Positions 2,038 to 13,811 of a stretch of DNA of 24,000 bases are shown in pieces (position 1 is the first letter of the stretch; every line of letters begins with the position of its first letter). The position numbers were made by a program, and so were the translations under genes. Origin of the DNA: Peptococcaceae bacterium (GTDB taxonomy: Bacteria; Bacillota; Peptococcia; Peptococcales; Peptococcaceae); NCBI GenBank assembly GCA_017399005.1, contig JAFQEO010000039.1:376-24375 (forward strand), read 5' to 3'. The notes under the pieces were generated by a model. The model ran no database searches. It saw only the letters and a program-made list of their open reading frames with translations, and was not told the DNA's origin.

Positions 2038-2182
2038 AATAAATCAAACACTCTAACAAAATATTATAGCACATTTCACTATAGACTGAAAACGAGAAAT
2101 CCTGTACCACACCTTCTCGGTTCATCATTCCGCGGACATATGTTTATCACATAAAAACAATACTTATTTTGTAAAATAGAAC

Positions 2183-2211
2183 TTTACATCTATTTCCAAT
2201 CGTGATATACT
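2183..2211 (+). promoter_or_regulatory. Sigma-70/SigA-type promoter of the helicase gene (TTTACA-17-TATACT)
   Basis: -35 TTTACA is at 2183-2188, followed by a 17-nt spacer and -10 TATACT at 2206-2211. It lies in an AT-rich region about 60 nt upstream of the ATG at 2274. Confidence 0.5.
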
Positions 2212-2273
2212 GCCTTTCAACAAAATTTACCAGAGATAACACCTTTACACACATCAGGGAAGGAGACCATTTT

Positions 2274-3866
2274 ATGACACAAGAACTTGTAATTCCCCAT
2301 GCTGCCGAACCCGAACTTCTGGACAATGCACCGGTACCCGTTGCAGAACCCATTGCCGAACCGGTTGCAGAACATCCGGCAAAACCCGTCCCGGCGGCCA
2401 GACCGTGGGACCGGGCAAAAGCACCGGAAACCGTGGAGGAAACCATCAACTGCTATGAGCCAAACGATGTAGGCAATGCCCGGCGCTTTCTGGATATACA
2501 CGGAAACACGGTACGATTCTGCGCTGCCGAAGACCAGTGGTATGCGTTTAACGGCATCCAGTGGAGTACTGCCACCACCGCCCATGTTGAGCGAATGGCC
2601 TTTCAGTCTCTCGAGGAATCCTACCAGAAAGAGGCACAGTATTTTAAAGAGCGGGACGATTTCGGCTATTTTAAAGACCTCCGCAAACAGACAGCAAAGC
2701 AGGGCATCGATGCCGGTAAAGCCAGAACCGTCAGCGACTGCGTAAAAGCCTCTGCCTTTTTAAATATCATCGAGCCGGAGGAGTTTAACAACGACCCTTA
2801 CTGGTTCCATGCAAAAAACGGTGCCCTTTATCTGAAACCGACCACGGTTATGGATAACGGAGAGGAAATTTTCCGTTATGAAGCAAAGCTAGGGAACAAT
2901 CCCAAACACTACTTTACCCGTACCGCCGGGGTATCCCTTCCGGGGCCGGAAGATTTGCACGATACGCCGCAGTGCCCCACCTGGGTTCAGTTTGTATACA
3001 CCTGTGCAGGGAAGGACCGAGCGGTATACAAATATCTGCAGAAAGCGGCCGGATACTCGGTGTTAACCGGTGATATCTCCGAGCAGAAGGTATTCTGCCT
3101 GCTGGGTGCCGGACGCAACGGCAAGTCGCTGTTTATCAACACACTGGCCGAGATTGCCGGTGACTACGCCTGCAAAATCGAATCGTCCATTCTGTGCCGC
3201 AACCGGTTTAACGAGCAGGACACCGACACCGCCAAAGAGCTGTTCCGCATGAAAGACAGCCGGTTTGTATATACCAGCGAATTCGGAAGCAGCAACACCT
3301 TGAACGAAGCCTTCATCAAAGCCATTACCGACGGCGGTAAAATCAGTGCACGGCAGCTTTACAGCTCTGCCATTGAATACACACCAACCTATAAGCTGTG
3401 GTTTTCCACCAACCATATGCCAAATCTGCAATCCATCGACGAAGGCATTCGCCGCCGCATTGTGGTAATTCCGTTCCGCAGCCAGATTCCGGAAAACCAG
3501 ATTGACCGTTCTCTGGCCGATAAACTGCGGGCCGAATACACTCAGATCCTGATCTGGCTGCTTCTGGGCTATAACGCCTATCTCTGTGAAGGGCTGGAGC
3601 CTCCAGAAGCCGTGCGCAGCGCCACCGCCAGCTACTTTGAGGAGCAGGACGTATTCCAGCGGTTTTTAAACGAATCCTATGTAATCGACCCAAACGGCAA
3701 AATCGCCGCCCGCACCCTCTATCAGCACTATCAGGGCTGGTGTGCGGAAAACGGCGAGAAAGCCGTGAGCAATAATAAGTTTGGAATGGAAATAACACGG
3801 CTTGGTGTAGAAAAAGGACGCGGAAAGCATGGAATTTTCTACCGCCTGAATGAAAAAACCTTATGA
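2274..3866 (+). CDS. Phage/plasmid 'primase' P4-family / D5-like SF3 helicase (replication initiator-helicase of a mobile element)
   Basis: ORF 2202..3866. The likely start is ATG 2274, preceded by GGAAGGAG (MTQELVIPH...). SF3 helicase motifs are present: Walker A LLGAGRNGKS, motif B FVYTSE and motif C LWFSTNHMP. An upstream 'NDVGNARRF' / D5_N-like region is typical of the P4-family C-terminal domain (COG3378-type) proteins. The N-terminal ~70 aa are Pro/Ala/Glu-rich, and I could not recognise a Toprim or AEP primase catalytic domain. Confidence 0.85.
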   Translation: MTQELVIPHAAEPELLDNAPVPVAEPIAEPVAEHPAKPVPAARPWDRAKAPETVEETINCYEPNDVGNARRFLDIHGNTVRFCAAEDQWYAFNGIQWSTATTAHVERMAFQSLEESYQKEAQYFKERDDFGYFKDLRKQTAKQGIDAGKARTVSDCVKASAFLNIIEPEEFNNDPYWFHAKNGALYLKPTTVMDNGEEIFRYEAKLGNNPKHYFTRTAGVSLPGPEDLHDTPQCPTWVQFVYTCAGKDRAVYKYLQKAAGYSVLTGDISEQKVFCLLGAGRNGKSLFINTLAEIAGDYACKIESSILCRNRFNEQDTDTAKELFRMKDSRFVYTSEFGSSNTLNEAFIKAITDGGKISARQLYSSAIEYTPTYKLWFSTNHMPNLQSIDEGIRRRIVVIPFRSQIPENQIDRSLADKLRAEYTQILIWLLLGYNAYLCEGLEPPEAVRSATASYFEEQDVFQRFLNESYVIDPNGKIAARTLYQHYQGWCAENGEKAVSNNKFGMEITRLGVEKGRGKHGIFYRLNEKTL

Positions 3867-3878
3867 TTATCCTGTTTG

Positions 3879-4041
3879 GGTGTAGTCGGGTGTATATCTG
3901 GTGCAGCTTTGGTGTAGGCACTTTTGTGTCAACCAATAGGCCGGTGTAGGAGTGTAGGACTTTTTAGAAAAAAATTAAAAATCGAAACAATATTATAAAA
4001 AACTTTCCAAAAAGTACTACATGTCCTACACCACCTACACC
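3879..4041. repeat. Iteron cluster flanking an AT-rich spacer; putative replication origin
   Basis: GGTGTAGG-type 8-mers occur at 3879-3886 (GGTGTAGT), 3889-3895 (GGTGTAT), 3900-3906 (GGTGCAG, degenerate), 3911-3918 (GGTGTAGG), 3943-3950 (GGTGTAGG) and 3951-3958 (AGTGTAGG). Inverted copies lie at 4025-4031 (CCTACAC) and 4034-4041 (CCTACACC). GGTGTAGGAGTGTAGGAC (3943-3960) and GTCCTACACCACCTACACC (4023-4041) form a near-perfect inverted repeat around 3961-4020, which has only 10 G/C in 60 nt. Confidence 0.55.
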
Positions 4042-4093
4042 CTGTATCCTTTTCAATCTTGACGCATAGATTCTAATATGGTAGTATATATTT

Positions 4094-4186
4094 AATAAAA
4101 GAGTTGTTGCGTGACGGCAACCCTGAGAATTATCTAAACGAAGATTACCCCGTCGACTTTTCCGAGGAGCAGACGGGGTAGTTTTT
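4094..4186 (+). ncRNA. Candidate small RNA, copy 1 (orphan antitoxin-like sRNA)
   Basis: The promoter has -35 TTGACG at 4059-4064, a 17-nt spacer containing TG, and -10 TAGTAT at 4082-4087. The transcript carries hairpin GTTGT/GCAAC (4103-4122) and the intrinsic terminator TACCCCGTC(4146-4154)...GACGGGGTA(4172-4180)+GTTTTT. There is no ORF or SD and no downstream plus-strand gene, so it is not a leader. The TSS is estimated. Confidence 0.5.
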
Positions 4187-4199
4187 CACCTGTAAAATA

Positions 4200-4228
4200 A
4201 GCCGGTACTGACTATCCAGATACCGGCT
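4200..4228 (-). terminator. Intrinsic terminator of the LRR lipoprotein gene (bidirectional hairpin)
   Basis: Stem AGCCGGTA (4200-4207) pairs with TACCGGCT (4221-4228). T-rich runs follow on both strands (TTTTCT on plus, TTATTTTAC on minus). Confidence 0.7.
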
Positions 4229-4244
4229 TTTCTCGTTTATTCAG

Positions 4245-5162
4245 TTATACGGTCAGAAAATCTACCAGTTTCTTCTCTGCTACATTCTCGATGTTAATAC
4301 CAGTTGCTCCATTTGGAACCTCAATGATGAATTTCAGAAGGTTTCCTTCAATGACTACGTTCTCCGGTATACCTTCCCACTCATCCCGGCTGATTTCCTC
4401 TACATCTGGCTGCTGTAATACAATCTGACGGGTAGCATAATCCAGACTCACAAATTTTAATTTATTCGAATAGCAATTCATAAATGCATCGTCGTACACT
4501 GACAGATGCCGTAAATTCGGTGTATTATCAATTTGCAACTCGGTAATCTGATTATTCGAACAGTCAACCGAAACCAGATTCGGCGCACTGCTGATATCCA
4601 GTTCTGTCAAACGGTTGAAACTAACATCTATACTCTGAATGTTCGGCAGCCCTTCAAGGTCTAACTCCGCCAGCTGACCGCCACTGCAATGCAGACCTTT
4701 CAAAGCTGGAAGATAATCATAGGAAATTTTTGTAAGTTCTTCATTGCCAGCACAGCTCAAATCCTCCAGATTCTTTGCGTTGCTTAAATCCAATTCTTTC
4801 AGGTTATTGTAAGGACAAGTGAGATATACAATACTTTCTGGAAGAACCAGAGTTTCAATATGGTTACTGTGAACATTCAAAAACGTCAGCCCTGTAAGCG
4901 CTGATACATCTAACGTTCCCGCAACAGGCTGTTCCCCGTAATAAAGAGCTATACTTTCTACTCTTCTAGGGTTATCCTTACTCCAGGAAGTAACAAAATC
5001 CCACGCTTTCACGTCATCCTTCGGTACATCCCAGCCGTGTTCATCAATCAGCTGATTAATGGCCGCAATATCGTTCTGGTCATATTCGGCCCCACAGCCA
5101 GTCAAACAGCAGACAAAACATAACAGCAATCCGATAATCAGCACATATTTTGGTGTTTTCAT
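4245..5162 (-). CDS. Leucine-rich-repeat (LRR) lipoprotein, surface-exposed, function unknown
   Basis: The 305-aa product has signal peptide MKTPKYVLIIGLLLCFVCCLTGC with lipobox LTGC. Repeated ~22-aa LRR units are present (LKELDLSNAKNLEDLSCAGNE, LAELDLEGLPNIQSIDVSFNR, LTELDISSAPNLVSVDCSNNQ, ITELQIDNTPNLRHLSV). AGGAGG lies 9 nt upstream. GC content is visibly lower than in the flanking genes. Confidence 0.8.
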   Translation of the reverse strand: MKTPKYVLIIGLLLCFVCCLTGCGAEYDQNDIAAINQLIDEHGWDVPKDDVKAWDFVTSWSKDNPRRVESIALYYGEQPVAGTLDVSALTGLTFLNVHSNHIETLVLPESIVYLTCPYNNLKELDLSNAKNLEDLSCAGNEELTKISYDYLPALKGLHCSGGQLAELDLEGLPNIQSIDVSFNRLTELDISSAPNLVSVDCSNNQITELQIDNTPNLRHLSVYDDAFMNCYSNKLKFVSLDYATRQIVLQQPDVEEISRDEWEGIPENVVIEGNLLKFIIEVPNGATGINIENVAEKKLVDFLTV

Positions 5163-5194
5163 AAGGTATCGCCTCCTGTCATTGTGTTAATTTT

Positions 5195-5223
5195 ATTATA
5201 ACAGAAACTCCTATCCGGCTCAA
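5195..5223 (-). promoter_or_regulatory. Promoter of the LRR lipoprotein gene (TTGAGC-17-TGtTATAAT)
   Basis: On the minus strand, -35 TTGAGC is at 5223..5218, followed by a 17-nt spacer and an extended -10 TGtTATAAT with TATAAT at 5200..5195. Confidence 0.55.
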
Positions 5224-5244
5224 TTTTTATTTTCAAATCACAAA

Positions 5245-5389
5245 TCTGTTATCCTCTTGACGCATAGATTCTAATGTGGTAGTATATACTTAATAAAAGA
5301 GTTGCTGCGTGACGGCAACCCTGATACTTTGTTTCTTGAGAATTACCCCGTCAACATTTCCTAGGTGCGGACGGGGTAGTTTTATGCCC
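5245..5389. repeat. Direct repeat copy 2, left part (sRNA promoter + sRNA)
   Basis: See copy 1. The central ~30 nt (5325-5343) diverge from copy 1, while the promoter, first hairpin and terminator arms are conserved. Confidence 0.8.
5292..5384 (+). ncRNA. Candidate antitoxin small RNA, copy 2, convergent with the 28-aa peptide gene
   Basis: The promoter has -35 TTGACG at 5257-5262, a 17-nt spacer with TG, and -10 TAGTAT at 5280-5285. It carries hairpin GTTGC/GCAAC (5301-5320) and terminator TACCCCGTC(5344-5352)...GACGGGGTA(5370-5378)+GTTTTA. It ends 23 nt from the stop codon of the convergent peptide ORF. Confidence 0.5.
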
Positions 5390-5406
5390 TTTTACAGGCG
5401 GTTCAA

Positions 5407-5493
5407 CTATTTTTCGCCATTAAAAAGGGCGATTACTGCTACGATTAGTAAGCCGAATGTAAATAAACTCGTTAAGGCTTCCCATGTTACCAT
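5407..5493 (-). CDS. Unannotated 28-aa hydrophobic peptide, candidate type I toxin (holin-like-toxin-type)
   Basis: Below the ORF-track size cutoff. Hand translation from ATG 5493..5491 to TAG 5409..5407 gives MVTWEALTSLFTFGLLIVAVIALFNGEK, a single TM helix with a short polar N-terminus and a charged C-terminus. A strong G-rich SD (AAAGGGGGTGGGAG) lies directly upstream, and a dedicated promoter lies ~70 nt upstream. From memory it resembles the ~25-35 aa 'putative holin-like toxin' peptides of Firmicutes. Confidence 0.55.
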   Translation of the reverse strand: MVTWEALTSLFTFGLLIVAVIALFNGEK

Positions 5494-5569
5494 AGCTCCC
5501 ACCCCCTTTAAGCGGGCTACCGTCCACTGCTATCCATTGTGAAAAACAATGTGCAACAACTCTGTCCAC

Positions 5570-5598
5570 ATTTTACCATGCGAACAGACATTCTGCAA
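5570..5598 (-). promoter_or_regulatory. Promoter of the 28-aa peptide mRNA (TTGCAG-17-TGgTAAAAT)
   Basis: On the minus strand, -35 TTGCAG is at 5598..5593, followed by a 17-nt spacer and an extended -10 TGg+TAAAAT with TAAAAT at 5575..5570. The predicted ~70-nt 5' UTR contains the CATTG/CAATG hairpin. A possible SD-sequestering pairing (UAGCCC...GGGAGCUA) is also present. Confidence 0.55.
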
Positions 5599-5625
5599 TA
5601 CGTTTTCCAAAATAAAATTAACATT

Positions 5626-5677
5626 CTGTAAAATAAGCCGGTATCACTCTCGATACCGGCTTTTATCATTTATTCGT
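5626..5677. repeat. Direct repeat copy 2, right part (shared terminator segment)
   Basis: CTGTAAAATAAGCCGGTA-N10-TACCGGCTTTTaTCaTTTATTC matches 4190-4243 of copy 1. In copy 2 it is separated from the sRNA by the ~235-bp peptide cassette. Confidence 0.75.
5636..5661 (-). terminator. Intrinsic terminator of the XRE-family gene (bidirectional hairpin)
   Basis: Stem AGCCGGTA (5636-5643) pairs with TACCGGCT (5654-5661). On the minus strand it is followed by TTATTTTAC, and it lies 9 nt after the stop codon at 5670. Confidence 0.7.
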
Positions 5678-6311
5678 CTTTCATAATATACTGTTTATCG
5701 ATTGCCAGATTCACCAGAACGGCTGCACACATATACACCACCAGCACCAGCACTTCAAACAGCAGGCTGGAGTATGGCCTTGGATAAAATGCTGCAGCGG
5801 CGCTCATGGCAAAGCGAACGGGGAAGTACAGCCCCAGCCACGCGGATATTTTATAAAACCGGCGGCGAAAGGCTTTTGTCTGCACGGTCTGTTTGCCGGT
5901 GTTTTTCTGATAGGCATATTCAAAACCGCCAATGGCTGCCACAAAGGGCAGAAAGCTTAAAAATGCAAAGACTACATTCTGCAGAATCACCACGCTCATA
6001 AACTGAATCAGCAGAACCATAACCTCTAATGTAATCAGATAAATGAGTATGCGGCCAATGTCGTTTTCATCGGCAGCCGGTACGGGCTCCTGCACTTGCG
6101 TTTTGTATTCATCCACATCATCGTTTAAGAGATAATCGGCACTCACGGCAAATACTCTGCTTAACTGCCGGATGTTGTTTGCATCAGGCAGAGCGGAGCC
6201 CGACTCCCAGCGCGAAATTGCCTGCCGGGATACGTTCAGTTTTTCCGCAAGCTGCTCCTGGCTCATCCCCTCTTTTTTGCGAAGCATTAAAATTTTGTCA
6301 CTCAGTTTCAT
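5670..6311 (-). CDS. XRE-family HTH transcriptional regulator with C-terminal multi-pass membrane domain
   Basis: ORF 5670..6347. The likely start is ATG 6311 (MKLSDKILMLRKKEGMSQEQLAEKLNVSRQAISRWESGSALPDANNIRQLSRVFAVSADYLL), preceded by AGGGGTGA. This is a canonical HTH_3/XRE motif followed by about 4 hydrophobic TM segments. Confidence 0.8.
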   Translation of the reverse strand: MKLSDKILMLRKKEGMSQEQLAEKLNVSRQAISRWESGSALPDANNIRQLSRVFAVSADYLLNDDVDEYKTQVQEPVPAADENDIGRILIYLITLEVMVLLIQFMSVVILQNVVFAFLSFLPFVAAIGGFEYAYQKNTGKQTVQTKAFRRRFYKISAWLGLYFPVRFAMSAAAAFYPRPYSSLLFEVLVLVVYMCAAVLVNLAIDKQYIMKDE

Positions 6312-6419
6312 AAAATCACCCCTGCTGTCGGTTTTGTTTGCTCTCATTATAGCAGACAGGCGGTTTTTAAGCTATCACTTACGGGTTGCAATTCCGCAAC
6401 AAGAGGTTACATCGGGTAG

Positions 6420-7712
6420 TTACACGCTAAACCATTCCTCTTTGTATCGCTTATCCAGATAGTTTTTCAGCATCCAGACGATGGCAAAGGCCAGAACAAA
6501 CAATGCCAGATAGACTTTCCAGATTAGCATATAGCTCCCGGTGGCATCGAATACCAACCCGGATAAGAATGGCCCGAAGGATGCACCAATGGTATAGGCA
6601 ATGGTGGTAAGGCTTAAAATATCGGCATAATCACGCTGGCCGAAAAATCCGCTGACAATCTGCGGCATTCCTACGCTGGTGAAAATGCTGCCGCAGCTGT
6701 AGCAAAGCGCAAACAACAATGCCAGAAACGGTGCATCGGCCAGAAGCAGACAAACCATAGCCAGTATAAAGGTTCCAGCCATAAACAGTATCCCTGCACG
6801 GGTACCTCTGGCATCACACACCATACCCAGCACGATTTTGGCAACTACAATACAAACAGCCTCAAACGAGAACACAAAGGCAATAAACCCTGCCGTATGG
6901 CCAATGTCTGTCAGATAAGCCGCAATATGCATGTGCACCCCGCCGATTACCAGCGACCAGATGCAGATAGCAGCCAGAAACAGCCAGAAATAGCTTTTTG
7001 TACGAATATCACCGAGTTTGGCCCCGGGTGCCGGTGTTTCTGTTCTGTTATCTTCTATACTATCCTCAATATCCTCGATATTCTTCTGTTTTGTTTTTCG
7101 TCCCCGATATGGTTCCGCACCGCGTTCTGCAGGATCGCGATACGCAAACATCCAGGTAAGCGGCAGACAGAAGATTGCAATCAAAGCCCCCATTGCCACA
7201 TAACTGAACTGCCAGCCGAACCGGGCTAAAAGTGCCGTCAGCACCGGTGACAGAATCGCCATCCCGAACCCGCTTCCGGTAAAGGCAATCCCCATTGCCA
7301 GCCCCTTACGGTCGATAAACCAGTTATTGATTAACAGCGACCCTACCATCTGCGTACATCCGGCTGTGCCGATACCTACAATAGCTGCAATAATATAAAA
7401 GTGCCACGGTGCACGGGCCAGTGAATAGGATGCAAAGCCCCCGGCCACTAACAGGACACATACGCCCACCACATACCGCGCTGGATACTTTTTCAGCATT
7501 TTTGTAACTACAGGCAGAGCAAAGGCCACTGCCACACCCGAAATAGTAAACAGGAGTGAAAATGCGCTGCGTTCCATGCCAAGCCCCTCGGTTACCGGCA
7601 CCAGAAACATACTGTGCAGATTCTTAATAACGGCAAAGTTAAAAAACATCAATATAAAACAGTAAAACACAATTCCAAAGCAAAACAAACTCTGCTGTTT
7701 CTGTTGTTTCAT
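6420..7712 (-). CDS. MFS transporter (12-TMS; MCT/oxalate-formate-antiporter-like), paralogue 1
   Basis: The 430-aa hydrophobic product has loop motif NNWFIDRKGLAMGIAFTGSGFG, typical of the OFA/MCT-like MFS subfamily. GGGGAGGAAA SD is present. It lies 26 nt downstream of its paralogue. Confidence 0.85.
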   Translation of the reverse strand: MKQQKQQSLFCFGIVFYCFILMFFNFAVIKNLHSMFLVPVTEGLGMERSAFSLLFTISGVAVAFALPVVTKMLKKYPARYVVGVCVLLVAGGFASYSLARAPWHFYIIAAIVGIGTAGCTQMVGSLLINNWFIDRKGLAMGIAFTGSGFGMAILSPVLTALLARFGWQFSYVAMGALIAIFCLPLTWMFAYRDPAERGAEPYRGRKTKQKNIEDIEDSIEDNRTETPAPGAKLGDIRTKSYFWLFLAAICIWSLVIGGVHMHIAAYLTDIGHTAGFIAFVFSFEAVCIVVAKIVLGMVCDARGTRAGILFMAGTFILAMVCLLLADAPFLALLFALCYSCGSIFTSVGMPQIVSGFFGQRDYADILSLTTIAYTIGASFGPFLSGLVFDATGSYMLIWKVYLALFVLAFAIVWMLKNYLDKRYKEEWFSV

Positions 7713-7738
7713 GTTGTTTCCTCCCCGGAATCCTGCAT

Positions 7739-9007
7739 TTATTCTTGCATTTCAGAGCAGAACCACAGACTGTTATACCGCTTGTCCAGATGACTTTTCA
7801 CAAGCCACAGCAGAACTGCCGATACGCTAAACAGCACCAGATACACCATCCAGATGATACGGTAACTGCCCAGGGCATCAAAGGCCATCCCGGAAACAAA
7901 CGGCCCGAAGGAAGCGCCCAGAATATACGCCATGTTCACAATTCCCAGAATATCGGCATAACTTTTCTGCCCGAAGAAACCGCCAATTAACGATGGTATC
8001 CCAACGCTGGAAAACGAAATCCCGCAACCGTAGGAAACCGCAAACAGTACTGCCAGAACCGGCTGTTCTGCCATCAGAAGAAGTACCAGCCCCAGTGCAA
8101 AGGTGCCGGCCATAAAAAGCAGCCCTGCTTTGCTGCCTTTGGCATCAAAAATCATACCGGCTGCAATTTTCCCGATTATTAGGCTCACAGCCTCTACCGA
8201 ATACACCATTGCCACAAACTGTGCCGTATGCCCCACATCGGTCAAATAAGCCGGAAAATGAGAATGTATGCCGCCAATAGCAAAAGACCATCCCGCCATA
8301 CCAATCAGAAACATCCAGAAGAACCCTTTGCCGCGAATTGCCTTCAGTTCCGGCCCCTCCGGTTTGCTTATTTCAGTGGTGTTTTCTGTTTCTTTGCCAG
8401 AGCCGTCCCTGTAAGGCCGGGCGTTTTTCTCCGCCGGGCTGACAGCAGCCAGAAGCAGCGTTAGTGGAATACATACCGCCAGCATAACAATCCCGCAGAG
8501 CAGATAAGCCGTGCGCCACCCGTAAACGGTAATCAGATGGGTAACCACCGGTGAAAGCAGAGCAGCCCCAAAGCCGCTGCCGGTGAGGCCAATCCCCAGC
8601 GCCAGCCCTTTGCGGTCTTCAAACCAGTTATTGATTAACAGCGATGCCACCATCAGGGTGCATCCAGAGTTGCCGGCGCCCATTACAACGGCAATGGCAA
8701 AAAACTGCCAGAGTTCTGTTGCCTGTGAGAACATCGCAAAGCCCCCGCCAGACATCAGGATAGATACCGAAACAACAATCCGTGCAGGATATTTCTGCAG
8801 CAGTTTTGTCACCACCGGCAGCGAAGCCACCCCGGAAAGGCCGCTTATGGTAAACATCAGCGAAAAGGCGCTGCGCTCCATGCCCAGCCCTTCCGTCACC
8901 GGAACCAGAAACAGACTGTGCAGACTTCCCACAATGGTCTGCATCAGAAACATCAATATAAAGCTATAACCAACGATACTGAAACACCGCAATGTATTCT
9001 TTGTCAT
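7739..9007 (-). CDS. MFS transporter (12-TMS; MCT/oxalate-formate-antiporter-like), paralogue 2
   Basis: ORF 7739..9061. The start is placed at ATG 9007 (MTKNTLRCFSIVGYSF...), preceded by AAGGAG at 8-nt spacing. It aligns with the downstream paralogue along its whole length (e.g. LHSLFLVPVTEGLGMERSAFSLMFTISG vs LHSMFLVPVTEGLGMERSAFSLLFTISG). Confidence 0.85.
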   Translation of the reverse strand: MTKNTLRCFSIVGYSFILMFLMQTIVGSLHSLFLVPVTEGLGMERSAFSLMFTISGLSGVASLPVVTKLLQKYPARIVVSVSILMSGGGFAMFSQATELWQFFAIAVVMGAGNSGCTLMVASLLINNWFEDRKGLALGIGLTGSGFGAALLSPVVTHLITVYGWRTAYLLCGIVMLAVCIPLTLLLAAVSPAEKNARPYRDGSGKETENTTEISKPEGPELKAIRGKGFFWMFLIGMAGWSFAIGGIHSHFPAYLTDVGHTAQFVAMVYSVEAVSLIIGKIAAGMIFDAKGSKAGLLFMAGTFALGLVLLLMAEQPVLAVLFAVSYGCGISFSSVGIPSLIGGFFGQKSYADILGIVNMAYILGASFGPFVSGMAFDALGSYRIIWMVYLVLFSVSAVLLWLVKSHLDKRYNSLWFCSEMQE

Positions 9008-9070
9008 TCTAAAATCTCCTTGTAAACCGTTTCTCATTTTTATCATTTTCATAATCTTCATTTATTATTA

Positions 9071-9099
9071 ATGATAGCATGCCCGATTTATACATACAA
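9071..9099 (-). promoter_or_regulatory. Possible promoter of the tandem MFS operon (TTGTAT-17-TATCAT)
   Basis: On the minus strand, -35 TTGTAT is at 9099..9094, followed by a 17-nt spacer and -10 TATCAT at 9076..9071. This is consistent with the ATG 9007 start rather than 9061. Confidence 0.4.
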
Positions 9100-9157
9100 A
9101 TATCATTTTCACGCCGCATATCAGGATATTCATTTATATTTTATTATTGAACATAAA

Positions 9158-9189
9158 ACAGGCGCTGTCCGGTAATGGATAGCGCCTGT
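9158..9189 (-). terminator. Intrinsic terminator after pgi (bidirectional hairpin)
   Basis: Stem ACAGGCGCT (9158-9166) pairs with AGCGCCTGT (9181-9189). TTTTATG follows on the minus strand and GTCGTTTTT on the plus strand. Confidence 0.7.
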
Positions 9190-13312: not shown

Positions 13313-13433
13313 TACAGATTATCCGGCAGGCGTCGCCGCTCCTGCATCTCTTTTGACCACTAGGGTGTGTGGTTGCAACGAAATTTACCACCTCAGATAA
13401 TCTCCTTACAATTATATACTAATTATATTCTGC

Positions 13434-13811
13434 TTATTCCTTTTTGTAAAGAACCTGTTTATTACGCAGATAGTTCTGTAACCGTTTTTCGCTAATCCGC
13501 CAACATGAAATAACAGAATTCTTATATGTTATATTATCTTGTGAAGTGCAAATACGCAAAACAAGCTGTAAGTATTCATTCTCCAACTCAATCCTTTTAA
13601 ACACCAGCCCCGAATTTTTGTGTTTGTCAGCAATAATGTAATCCGGAGATTCTATCGCCAGTTTTAAATATTGAATAATATCAGGATATGTCTCAGGATG
13701 TCGTTCTAAAATATGCTGCAGTTGATTATCCGTTAAAATCACTTCATCTGTCGCTACATCGTCTGTTATGCATTTATAAATTTTTCGGTCAATCTTCCCG
13801 AGTTGATACAA
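13434..13811 (-). CDS. Small hypothetical protein, possible PBECR-type (Barnase/EndoU/ColicinE5-D/RelE-like) nuclease-fold protein of mobile-element origin
   Basis: The 125-aa product has an apparent TTG start at 13811 with AGGAGA 10 nt upstream, and no in-frame ATG is available. From memory, the motif 'VILTDNQLQHILERHPETY' resembles the 'xLTxERxxHIxxRHP' N-terminal signature of small phage/ICE-borne PBECR-family proteins. The region is low in GC. Confidence 0.5.
   Translation of the reverse strand: MYQLGKIDRKIYKCITDDVATDEVILTDNQLQHILERHPETYPDIIQYLKLAIESPDYIIADKHKNSGLVFKRIELENEYLQLVLRICTSQDNITYKNSVISCWRISEKRLQNYLRNKQVLYKKE

Follow-up and report, generated by a model that had tools for sequence, protein, structure and literature searches.

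Evidence for a chromosomally resident SF3 helicase with a cognate origin-type element, and for dispersed helicase-less copies of that element, in one genus of the Peptococcaceae

Positions 2274–4043 of a 24,000-nucleotide (nt) stretch of Peptococcaceae DNA (the whole stretch is called the window here; contig JAFQEO010000039.1 of assembly GCA_017399005.1) contain a gene for an SF3 helicase and, directly after it, a group of short repeats (iterons) laid out like a replication origin. This raises the question of whether the locus is an embedded replicon of the satellite or plasmid kind, as an initial description made from the window alone (the first-pass annotation) had proposed, or a resident part of the chromosome. 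The source genome, G000, is a 2.4-Mb metagenome-assembled genome in 39 contigs from an uncultured member of the Peptococcaceae of the ruminant gut, and the window sits close to the start of its 107-kb contig C39. Other genomes are labelled G001–G010 and so on, and independent scaffolds or contigs carry L numbers. The answer that we consider probable is that 2274–4043 is a solitary, chromosomally resident initiator-type SF3 helicase with its cognate origin-type element, within a genus-confined dispersed family. It is one of three paralogous helicase–element pairs in G000 and not an integrated satellite or plasmid with cargo. Judging from sequence comparison, the helicase clade and the element family are confined to one Peptococcaceae genus, with one iteron type per helicase type.

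The helicase open reading frame (ORF) is preceded by the ribosome-binding site GGAAGGAGA. The protein has three Pfam matches: D5_N at amino acids (aa) 69–243, DUF5906 (the SF3 ATPase, with the Walker A motif GAGRNGKS) at 276–394 and a Pox_D5 winged helix at 459–518. The score against TIGR01613, the C-terminal helicase region of the P4 family, is 228.8 bits compared with a cut-off of 108.7, and the SF3 motifs are invariant across 59 relatives. The Pro/Ala/Glu-rich N-terminal extension described in the first-pass annotation is present (aa 1–60), and residues 1–37 are predicted to be disordered. The AlphaFold2 model has a pLDDT of 89.4; its Foldseek matches are to the helicase parts of C962R of African swine fever virus (ASFV), the SaPI5 PriRep structure 7OLA (TM score 0.71 on the target) and E5 of monkeypox virus, the ASFV and poxvirus proteins being D5-type helicases.

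The helicase lacks a primase, as had been suspected from the sequence. Searches with Pfam, TIGR and PHROG profiles found no N-terminal primase domain of the prim-pol or Toprim type. The PHROG primase profiles, which have 770–855 positions, align to the protein only from position ∼310–376 onward; therefore, the primase part is absent. There is also no primase gene upstream, where the neighbour is a divergently oriented MFS transporter gene. The same is true of the clade to which the helicase belongs: it comprises ∼65 protein clusters of 480–615 aa, none with a primase Pfam domain. Every source name given for these clusters is that of a Peptococcaceae genome, and the remaining clusters come from metagenome contigs. 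Outside the clade there is an abrupt fall in identity, and the relatives found there, at 35% or less, are full-length primase-helicases of 750–850 aa that carry PF22763 or PF09250. Within it, G000 encodes two further close paralogues of the window helicase (54% and 50% identity), and relatives in the genus hold orthologues and paralogues with 48–77% identity.

The anatomy of the element is given in Table 1. The first-pass annotation had listed six direct iterons, a 60-nt stretch with 10 G/C and two inverted iterons after the helicase gene, and all of these coordinates and counts were borne out; positions 3961–4020 contain exactly 10 G/C in 60 nt. The first outer direct iteron begins 12 nt past the helicase stop codon and the outer iterons follow one another at spacings of 11, 10 and 11 nt. 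The inner arms, GGTGTAGGAGTGTAGGAC (3943–3960) and GTCCTACACCACCTACACC (4023–4041), are complementary except for a 1-nt difference in the spacer. There are four exact copies of GGTGTAGG in the window, all inside 3911–4041, and none of 100 shuffled sequences reached the observed number of iteron matches with one mismatch or fewer. The exact sequence occurs 73 times on both strands of the 2.4-Mb genome, and ∼0.005 copies would therefore be expected per 165-nt stretch.

Table 1. Coordinates in the window of the helicase gene, the origin-like element with its parts, and the surrounding region
Feature	Position	Strand	Basis or remark
Variable chromosomal region between MFS_A and PGI	2100–9160	.	Approximate boundaries; absent in four species
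Promoter-like site TTTACA-17-TATACT, TG-extended	2183–2211	+	Kept at orthologous loci of G010 and G002
Helicase gene, 530 aa, primase-less SF3 initiator-type	2274–3866	+	ORF, domain matches, model, selection
Origin-like element, ∼165 nt, one unit of the dispersed family	3876–4043	+	Starts 10–12 nt past the helicase stop
Four helically phased direct iterons GGTGTAGT, GTGTATAT, GGTGCAGC, GGTGTAGG	3879–3918	+	Starts 3879, 3890, 3900, 3911
Conserved box TCAACCAATAG between outer and inner iterons	3929–3939	+	Retained in units whose iterons differ
Inner direct iteron pair GGTGTAGG-A-GTGTAGGAC	3943–3960	+	Iteron starts 3943, 3951
A-rich, AT-rich core, presumed melting region	3961–4013	+	7 G/C in 53 nt; 31 A, 15 T
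Two inverted iterons, GTCCTACAC-C-ACCTACACC on the + strand	4023–4041	-	Iterons at 4025–4032, 4034–4041

The first-pass annotation had left its proposal to depend on whether homologues of the helicase are followed by similar repeats. We searched ∼20 clade loci with enough downstream DNA (44–77% identity; drawn from G000, G002, G003, G005, G007, G010 and metagenome contigs) with a covariance model, and found exactly one unit at or just after the stop codon in each and none upstream. The layout that recurs downstream of the relatives consists of three to five phased direct iterons, the box, two iterons, an AT-rich core of ∼55–60 nt (the length found in all units) and two to four inverted iterons. 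At the orthologous locus of G002, for example, one additional 11-nt iteron is found among the outer direct iterons.

The layout is kept but the iteron sequence is not. The TG-initial cores differ between helicases (TGTAGG, TGGCGG, TGACGA, TGCAAT, TGGCA, TGGTG, TGAAGG, TGACGT and TGTGTA), and one further core among the paralogues is GTGTTG. In three independent pairs of helicases the C-terminal wing is identical and the iteron is shared, and where the wings differ the iterons differ too. G010 shows joint changes of the iterons on both arms at its orthologous locus. More distantly, 10 of the 14 closest homologues in viral contigs have the same dyad layout downstream; overall, it was found at 10 of 76 loci compared with 1 of 339 control windows. 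We regard 3876–4043 as a well-supported candidate for an origin-type binding site cognate to the adjoining helicase, because of the recurring layout, the co-variation of wing and iteron, and the origin anatomy of the phage A2 and Staphylococcus aureus pathogenicity island (SaPI) modules.

In modules of the SaPI type, rep encodes a ring helicase (SF3 or MCM-like) with a C-terminal winged-helix domain that binds the origin. The SaPI origin lies directly downstream of rep, and its AT-rich region is bordered on either side by two or more iterons, the two sets being opposite in orientation (PMC9371898); the C-terminal wing of the SaPI Rep protein has been shown to read the iterons (bioRxiv 10.64898/2026.10.17.759575). 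Like Rep1 and PriRep5 of the SaPIs and related phage-inducible chromosomal islands (PICIs), the window helicase is of the self-loading type, with three tiers formed by an N-terminal domain, the SF3 ATPase and a C-terminal winged helix. The position of the origin directly 3′ of the gene, the opposed iterons around AT-rich DNA and the variation of iteron specificity between paralogous helicases are also shared, although the fold match to PriRep5 has a sequence identity of only ∼18%. Unlike the islands, the window locus has no primase, fused or upstream, no integrase or att site, no regulator set (including the master repressor) and no packaging or interference genes. It is also chromosomally fixed, with a divergence like that of its flanks and a context unlike that of an inducible island, and many helicase-less origin copies and heterotypic arrays are found in the chromosome.

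The closest annotated phage homologue is the ORF35 primase-helicase of Lactobacillus phage A2 (NC_004112), with 33% identity over aa 64–523. Its annotated rep_origin likewise starts at the gene's 3′ end: direct iterons come first, a spacer and one more iteron follow, and ∼60 nt of AT-rich DNA then separate these from the inverted iterons. Thus the origin-type layout recognized by the first-pass annotation has the same position and order as the annotated A2 origin and the SaPI origins. The A2 protein differs in having 770 aa and an N-terminal primase, and the A2 module lies in a phage genome among helicase, SSB and Sak4 genes, with no dispersed orphan copies known. P4 alpha resembles the window helicase in its TIGR01613 match and in iterons that are read by the C-terminal domain, and P4 has a second iteron site, crr, apart from ori. 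However, alpha carries a primase, its iterons (TGTTCACC) and their layout are not the same, and crr is a single site 4.5 kb away in the same replicon rather than a genome-wide family.

With a replication module of this anatomy, the locus might still be part of an integrated satellite of the PICI/SaPI type, a plasmid or a prophage, or a decaying remnant of one, with the neighbouring leucine-rich repeat (LRR), toxin-antitoxin and XRE genes as cargo. Several observations would fit: the rep-plus-ori anatomy is that of the SaPI and A2 modules, and small plasmids of Thermaerobacter and Clostridium encode full-length relatives. More distant homologues do lie in mobile surroundings: G039 has a terS-like gene after the origin, and two remote paralogues in G000 (C9:79098 and C31:9694) adjoin tyrosine integrases. 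Furthermore, the region between MFS_A and PGI is present in some species and absent in others.

The genes around the locus are therefore of interest. Upstream of the helicase are a MerR/TipAS gene, a small gene and an MFS pump gene, and on the independent 38-kb scaffold L038 the MerR/TipAS–MFS genes are preceded by FtsEX, CtpB, NifU and HydF. Downstream, the element is followed by a gene for an LRR lipoprotein, by a type I toxin-antitoxin pair and an XRE regulator, and then by two MFS genes, PGI and an epimerase gene. The variable region, whose limits are given approximately because the intergenic DNA has diverged too far to place them exactly, contains the helicase and its element, a small RNA (sRNA) in two copies and the genes from the LRR lipoprotein to the two MFS genes. 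The locus is not invariant in the relatives, a point that the first-pass annotation had raised: in four species of the genus (G004, G005, G006 and G008), the interval is empty and MFS_A lies directly beside PGI. It has other content in G007, and in G002 the order is GltS-like gene, amidohydrolase, LysR, MFS_D, helicase, element, small ORF, toxin-antitoxin pair, MFS_B and MFS_C. The neighbours of the helicase are not the same in G000, G002 and G010. The locus is thus polymorphic among species, yet the proposed cargo is not conserved, as the contents of the interval differ by species; the LRR gene (4245–5162) lies between two copies of the sRNA, the duplicate directly following the element. Across the genus, the interval between the MerR-linked MFS pump and PGI (550–2037 to 9197 in the window) is a hot spot of gene turnover; where it is not empty, its contents vary and include sets of MFS paralogues, LysR regulators, an amidohydrolase and a GltS-like transporter.

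Nothing that would move such an element was found nearby. In the window and L038 there is no integrase, att repeat, tRNA, repressor–antirepressor pair or packaging gene within at least 8 kb upstream or 20 kb downstream of the locus, in agreement with the first-pass annotation, which had recognized no integrase, att or packaging sequences. No tRNA or tmRNA that could have served as an integration anchor was found. Tyrosine integrases adjoin the two remote paralogues only, and there is none near any of the three close paralogues in G000. The other two close paralogues also stand alone among housekeeping genes, as do the relatives found on long contigs of other assemblies. The serine recombinase genes nearest to the window helicase are ∼28 kb away, downstream at C39:31910–36003, where three to four large ones are arranged consecutively and one contains a stop codon.

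Phage and plasmid records and viral contigs gave no relative of the helicase above 38% identity. The element itself had no BLAST match in the phage, plasmid and viral collections, and the 14-mer box had only chance matches in viral contigs, none of which was confirmed by the covariance model. None of 16 short metagenome contigs showed the terminal overlap expected of circular ends.

The state of the gene argues against a remnant in particular. The ORF is intact, with a ratio of nonsynonymous to synonymous divergence (dN/dS) of 0.16–0.29 that indicates purifying selection. Between G000 and G002, the synonymous divergence (dS) is 0.68 for the helicase, equivalent to that of the flanking genes (PGI, 0.75; epimerase, 0.63; MFS_C, 0.91). 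The element is ∼85% identical between the two genomes, where the neutral expectation at that dS is estimated as ∼55%. The flank-like dS, purifying selection and conservation of the element therefore point to long vertical residence under selection rather than to a fresh insertion or a decaying remnant. Of the earlier proposal, the rep/ori-type structure stands; an embedded element with cargo does not, as mobility genes and a conserved cargo are both absent, and we consider an integrated satellite, plasmid, prophage or remnant unlikely.

The largest departure from the first-pass annotation lies outside the window. The supposed ori is one member of a genus-wide family of dispersed repeats, most copies of which have no helicase. 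In G000, nhmmer and the covariance model (R1) found 16 strong copies, to which are added assembly-collapsed copies at the ends of C18, C8 and C27. Of ∼17 copies in total, only three are beside a helicase and at least 13 are without one (orphans). The family is present in 11 of the 14 other genomes of the genus, with ∼20 copies in G001 and ∼25 in G002, and in none of 26 genomes of other genera; G008 has nine units and no clade helicase. Copy numbers and array structures are lower bounds because metagenome assemblies break at the repeats.

Five orphans in G000 have TGTAGG-type iterons (C9:18842, C21:8345, C36:83507, C31:109594 and C9:67003), and the window helicase could therefore bind them in trans. 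Three others are of the CTGAAGG type, matching the helicase on C38, and five have iteron types without a cognate helicase in the G000 assembly. The genes that flank the orphans are ordinary or housekeeping genes, e.g. those for an MBL hydrolase, an amidohydrolase, ArgH, a histidine kinase and RNase R. Conserved orphans occur at orthologous positions of G000 and G001 and of G000 and G010, and one site is empty in G002; at one orthologous site, G000, G010 and G008 have three different unit types.

One route to an orphan is seen at C8:74116–74392 of G000, where a unit of the ATGACGA type comes after a helicase remnant that comprises the last ∼45 codons and has an internal deletion. This unit is identical to the one after the intact helicase on C18, an identity that explains the three contig ends on C18, C8 and C27. 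The truncated helicase on C8 is an intermediate which demonstrates that an orphan unit can result from loss of the gene.

Units of unlike iteron type often abut head to tail, forming heterotypic arrays. Some arrays are preceded by a conserved leader, TTATTAACATTTTTTAGGAG, and followed by a long palindrome of ∼240 nt; examples with the leader are C28:3414–3738 and C28:14854–15028 in G000, and C193, C235 and C62 in G001. The same junction of a type-4 with a type-3 unit is found in both G000 and G001. The palindrome, which is imperfect (GCTCTGGAGATT...CCCCGTCGCCGG...GGCGACGGGG...TCCAGAGC), makes up a second repeat family and is very often found just downstream of units or arrays (C27:150–400, C8:67–307 and C21:63051–63289 in G000; also on L194, L197, L199, L200, L202, L204 and L011). 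The palindrome may serve as a signal for single-strand initiation; alternatively, it may be an unrelated miniature inverted-repeat transposable element (MITE).

Divergent promoter regions are avoided by the units. Unit orientation in G000 is unrelated to GC skew, with nine units one way and seven the other. The cumulative GC skew has its minimum at ∼86 kb on C31 and its maximum at ∼146 kb on C35, suggesting that the chromosomal origin and terminus are located there.

Dispersal of this sort raises the possibility that the units are generic MITE- or REP-like (repetitive extragenic palindromic) repeats, spread by an unrelated transposase or by recombination, with an insertion preference that places them beside helicases. 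The units are multi-copy, short, non-coding and intergenic, and the ∼165-nt copies have inverted arms, are sometimes in tandem, break contigs and often lie at the 3′ ends of genes or between convergent genes. Against this, the units have a fixed position and orientation relative to the helicase stop codon in ∼20 loci, with none upstream, and their iterons co-vary with the wing. In their asymmetric layout and in the 10–11-nt phasing of their direct repeats, they match proven origins. The inverted iterons are internal, the left arm reaching ∼75 nt beyond them, and not terminal. Neither the ends of copies nor one empty site showed a target-site duplication, although the divergence of the flanks is too great for the ends to be placed exactly, and no transposase family is linked to the units. 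PDDEXK_2 nucleases were considered as a linked factor and rejected, as they flank one relative only and are unlinked in G000. A generic repeat is, in our judgement, very unlikely.

The inner arms can pair over 18–19 bp, and the element might alternatively be a structured RNA, or a terminator or attenuator, with the inverted iterons folding into a long hairpin at the upstream gene's 3′ end. In line with this, 25 of 33 units are co-oriented with the upstream gene, and there are sub-threshold Rfam matches to hairpin families. On the other hand, the remaining 8 of the 33 units are oppositely oriented, and searches of the element, the arrays and the long palindrome gave no Rfam match above threshold. 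Neither the conserved box nor any of the four outer direct iterons would have a pairing partner, the loop would be an A-rich tract of 55–60 nt, and several orphans follow an ordinary terminator. The apparent co-variation of the arms is equally expected for a protein site present in both orientations. We consider an RNA function extremely improbable.

The arrays could also be understood as decoy or capture sites, with the host keeping orphans and heterotypic arrays to titrate or misdirect the initiator helicases of incoming phages or satellites, and the resident helicases being captured relatives. In favour of such a role are the many iteron types, several of which have no cognate helicase in the genome; the head-to-tail heterotypic arrays, sometimes behind a conserved leader; the turnover of types at an orthologous site; and a genome such as G008 with units alone. 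The situation would be similar to the 'phage-encoded resistance' conferred by cloned phage origins, and the phage A2 origin has reportedly been used experimentally as a defence. Against this, no phage was found with a clade helicase or with these iterons, the PADLOC defence profiles gave no match to the helicase, and no acquisition machinery adjoins the arrays. Every helicase has also kept a unit of its own, a feature not required by a model of decoys alone. Decoy sites are, in our view, quite unlikely.

There is a likeness, in logic only, to REP elements, or REPINs, and the REP-associated tyrosine transposase (RAYT) genes. In both cases, a single-copy, vertically inherited gene is flanked by the matching repeat type and has dispersed intergenic copies; the repeat type varies with the type of gene; and tandem clusters occur. 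The one iteron type per helicase type and the confinement to one genus are the basis of this comparison, by which a vertically kept gene with a cloud of matching non-coding sites would resemble a REP/RAYT system. The components are different: RAYTs are HUH-type transposases acting on hairpins of ∼20–30 nt, whereas here there is an SF3 helicase without a nuclease domain and an origin-like dyad of 165 nt.

If the resident helicase acts as its relatives do, its C-terminal winged helix would, by homology, read the TG-initial iterons. Hexamers would form at both sets of iterons, the phased direct ones and the inverted ones, on either side of the A-rich core, and would melt the core, as has been shown for the SaPI Rep proteins. 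Priming would have to be supplied by the host.

Several points weigh against our interpretation. Binding, melting and any firing of replication are steps that we infer. There is no fused or adjacent primase, unlike in SaPI, A2 and P4, and the helicase may thus be unable to start replication alone. No GC-skew switch was found at the 12 copies tested, the sign being the same on both sides; therefore, the units are not routine chromosomal origins. The units in G008 imply that orphans persist without the protein and could simply be relics. Within G000, the copies are no more than 86% alike, except for one collapsed pair of the ATGACGA type, giving no sign of recent spread. Finally, the contigs of G000 often end at these repeats, and the array structures could include assembly errors. 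Nevertheless, none of the rival explanations accounts for the fixed geometry of gene and element, the co-variation of wing and iteron and the solitary, selected state all together, and a resident helicase with its cognate element remains the interpretation that we favour.

What the scattered sites might be used for is a separate matter. If they are more than relics, they could allow conditional local over-replication of their neighbourhoods, or the arrays could gather units of differing specificity (leader, unit, unit, long palindrome) to trap foreign initiators; we put either use forward as a speculation that is doubtful at present. A literature search found no description of such dispersed helicase-less families of origin-like sequences, and scattered helicase-less origin copies are an arrangement that is not described for this kind of replication module.

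Other small features were found in the window. The type I toxin-antitoxin-like pair consists of a promoter-driven sRNA of ∼130 nt (5257–5385, + strand) that converges on a gene for a hydrophobic peptide of 28 aa, MVTWEALTSLFTFGLLIVAVIALFNGEK (5407–5493, − strand). The sRNA has two hairpins, with one compensatory change in G002, and the peptide matches Pfam Hol_Tox with an E-value of 1.4e-4, just under the cut-off. The second, toxin-less copy of the sRNA (4059–4190, + strand), directly after the origin-like element, is 85% identical. The one known RNA family found in the window is a skipping-rope RNA (Rfam RF02924, 59 bits), located at 13318–13401 on the − strand, directly downstream of a PBECR2-type nuclease gene (13434–13811, − strand); two genes without family matches lie with the nuclease gene upstream of the RNA.

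Origins that combine a helicase gene with iterons are well known from phages, satellites and plasmids. Here, the module appears to have been reduced to two parts, without primase or integrase, and to have been maintained by selection in the chromosome throughout the divergence of the species; it has also been multiplied into a family of putative docking sites that mostly lack the gene. The family breaks the assemblies of these gut bacteria, and it offers ∼10 natural wing/iteron pairs for study of the DNA-recognition code of SF3 initiator helicases. If the helicases do bind these sites, there would be dozens of chromosomal places where an initiator of foreign type can open DNA, with a bearing on genome stability, local gene dosage, phage–host conflict and the origin of short repeat families. 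Either use of the sites, if true, would represent a new class of chromosomal system derived from a replicon module.

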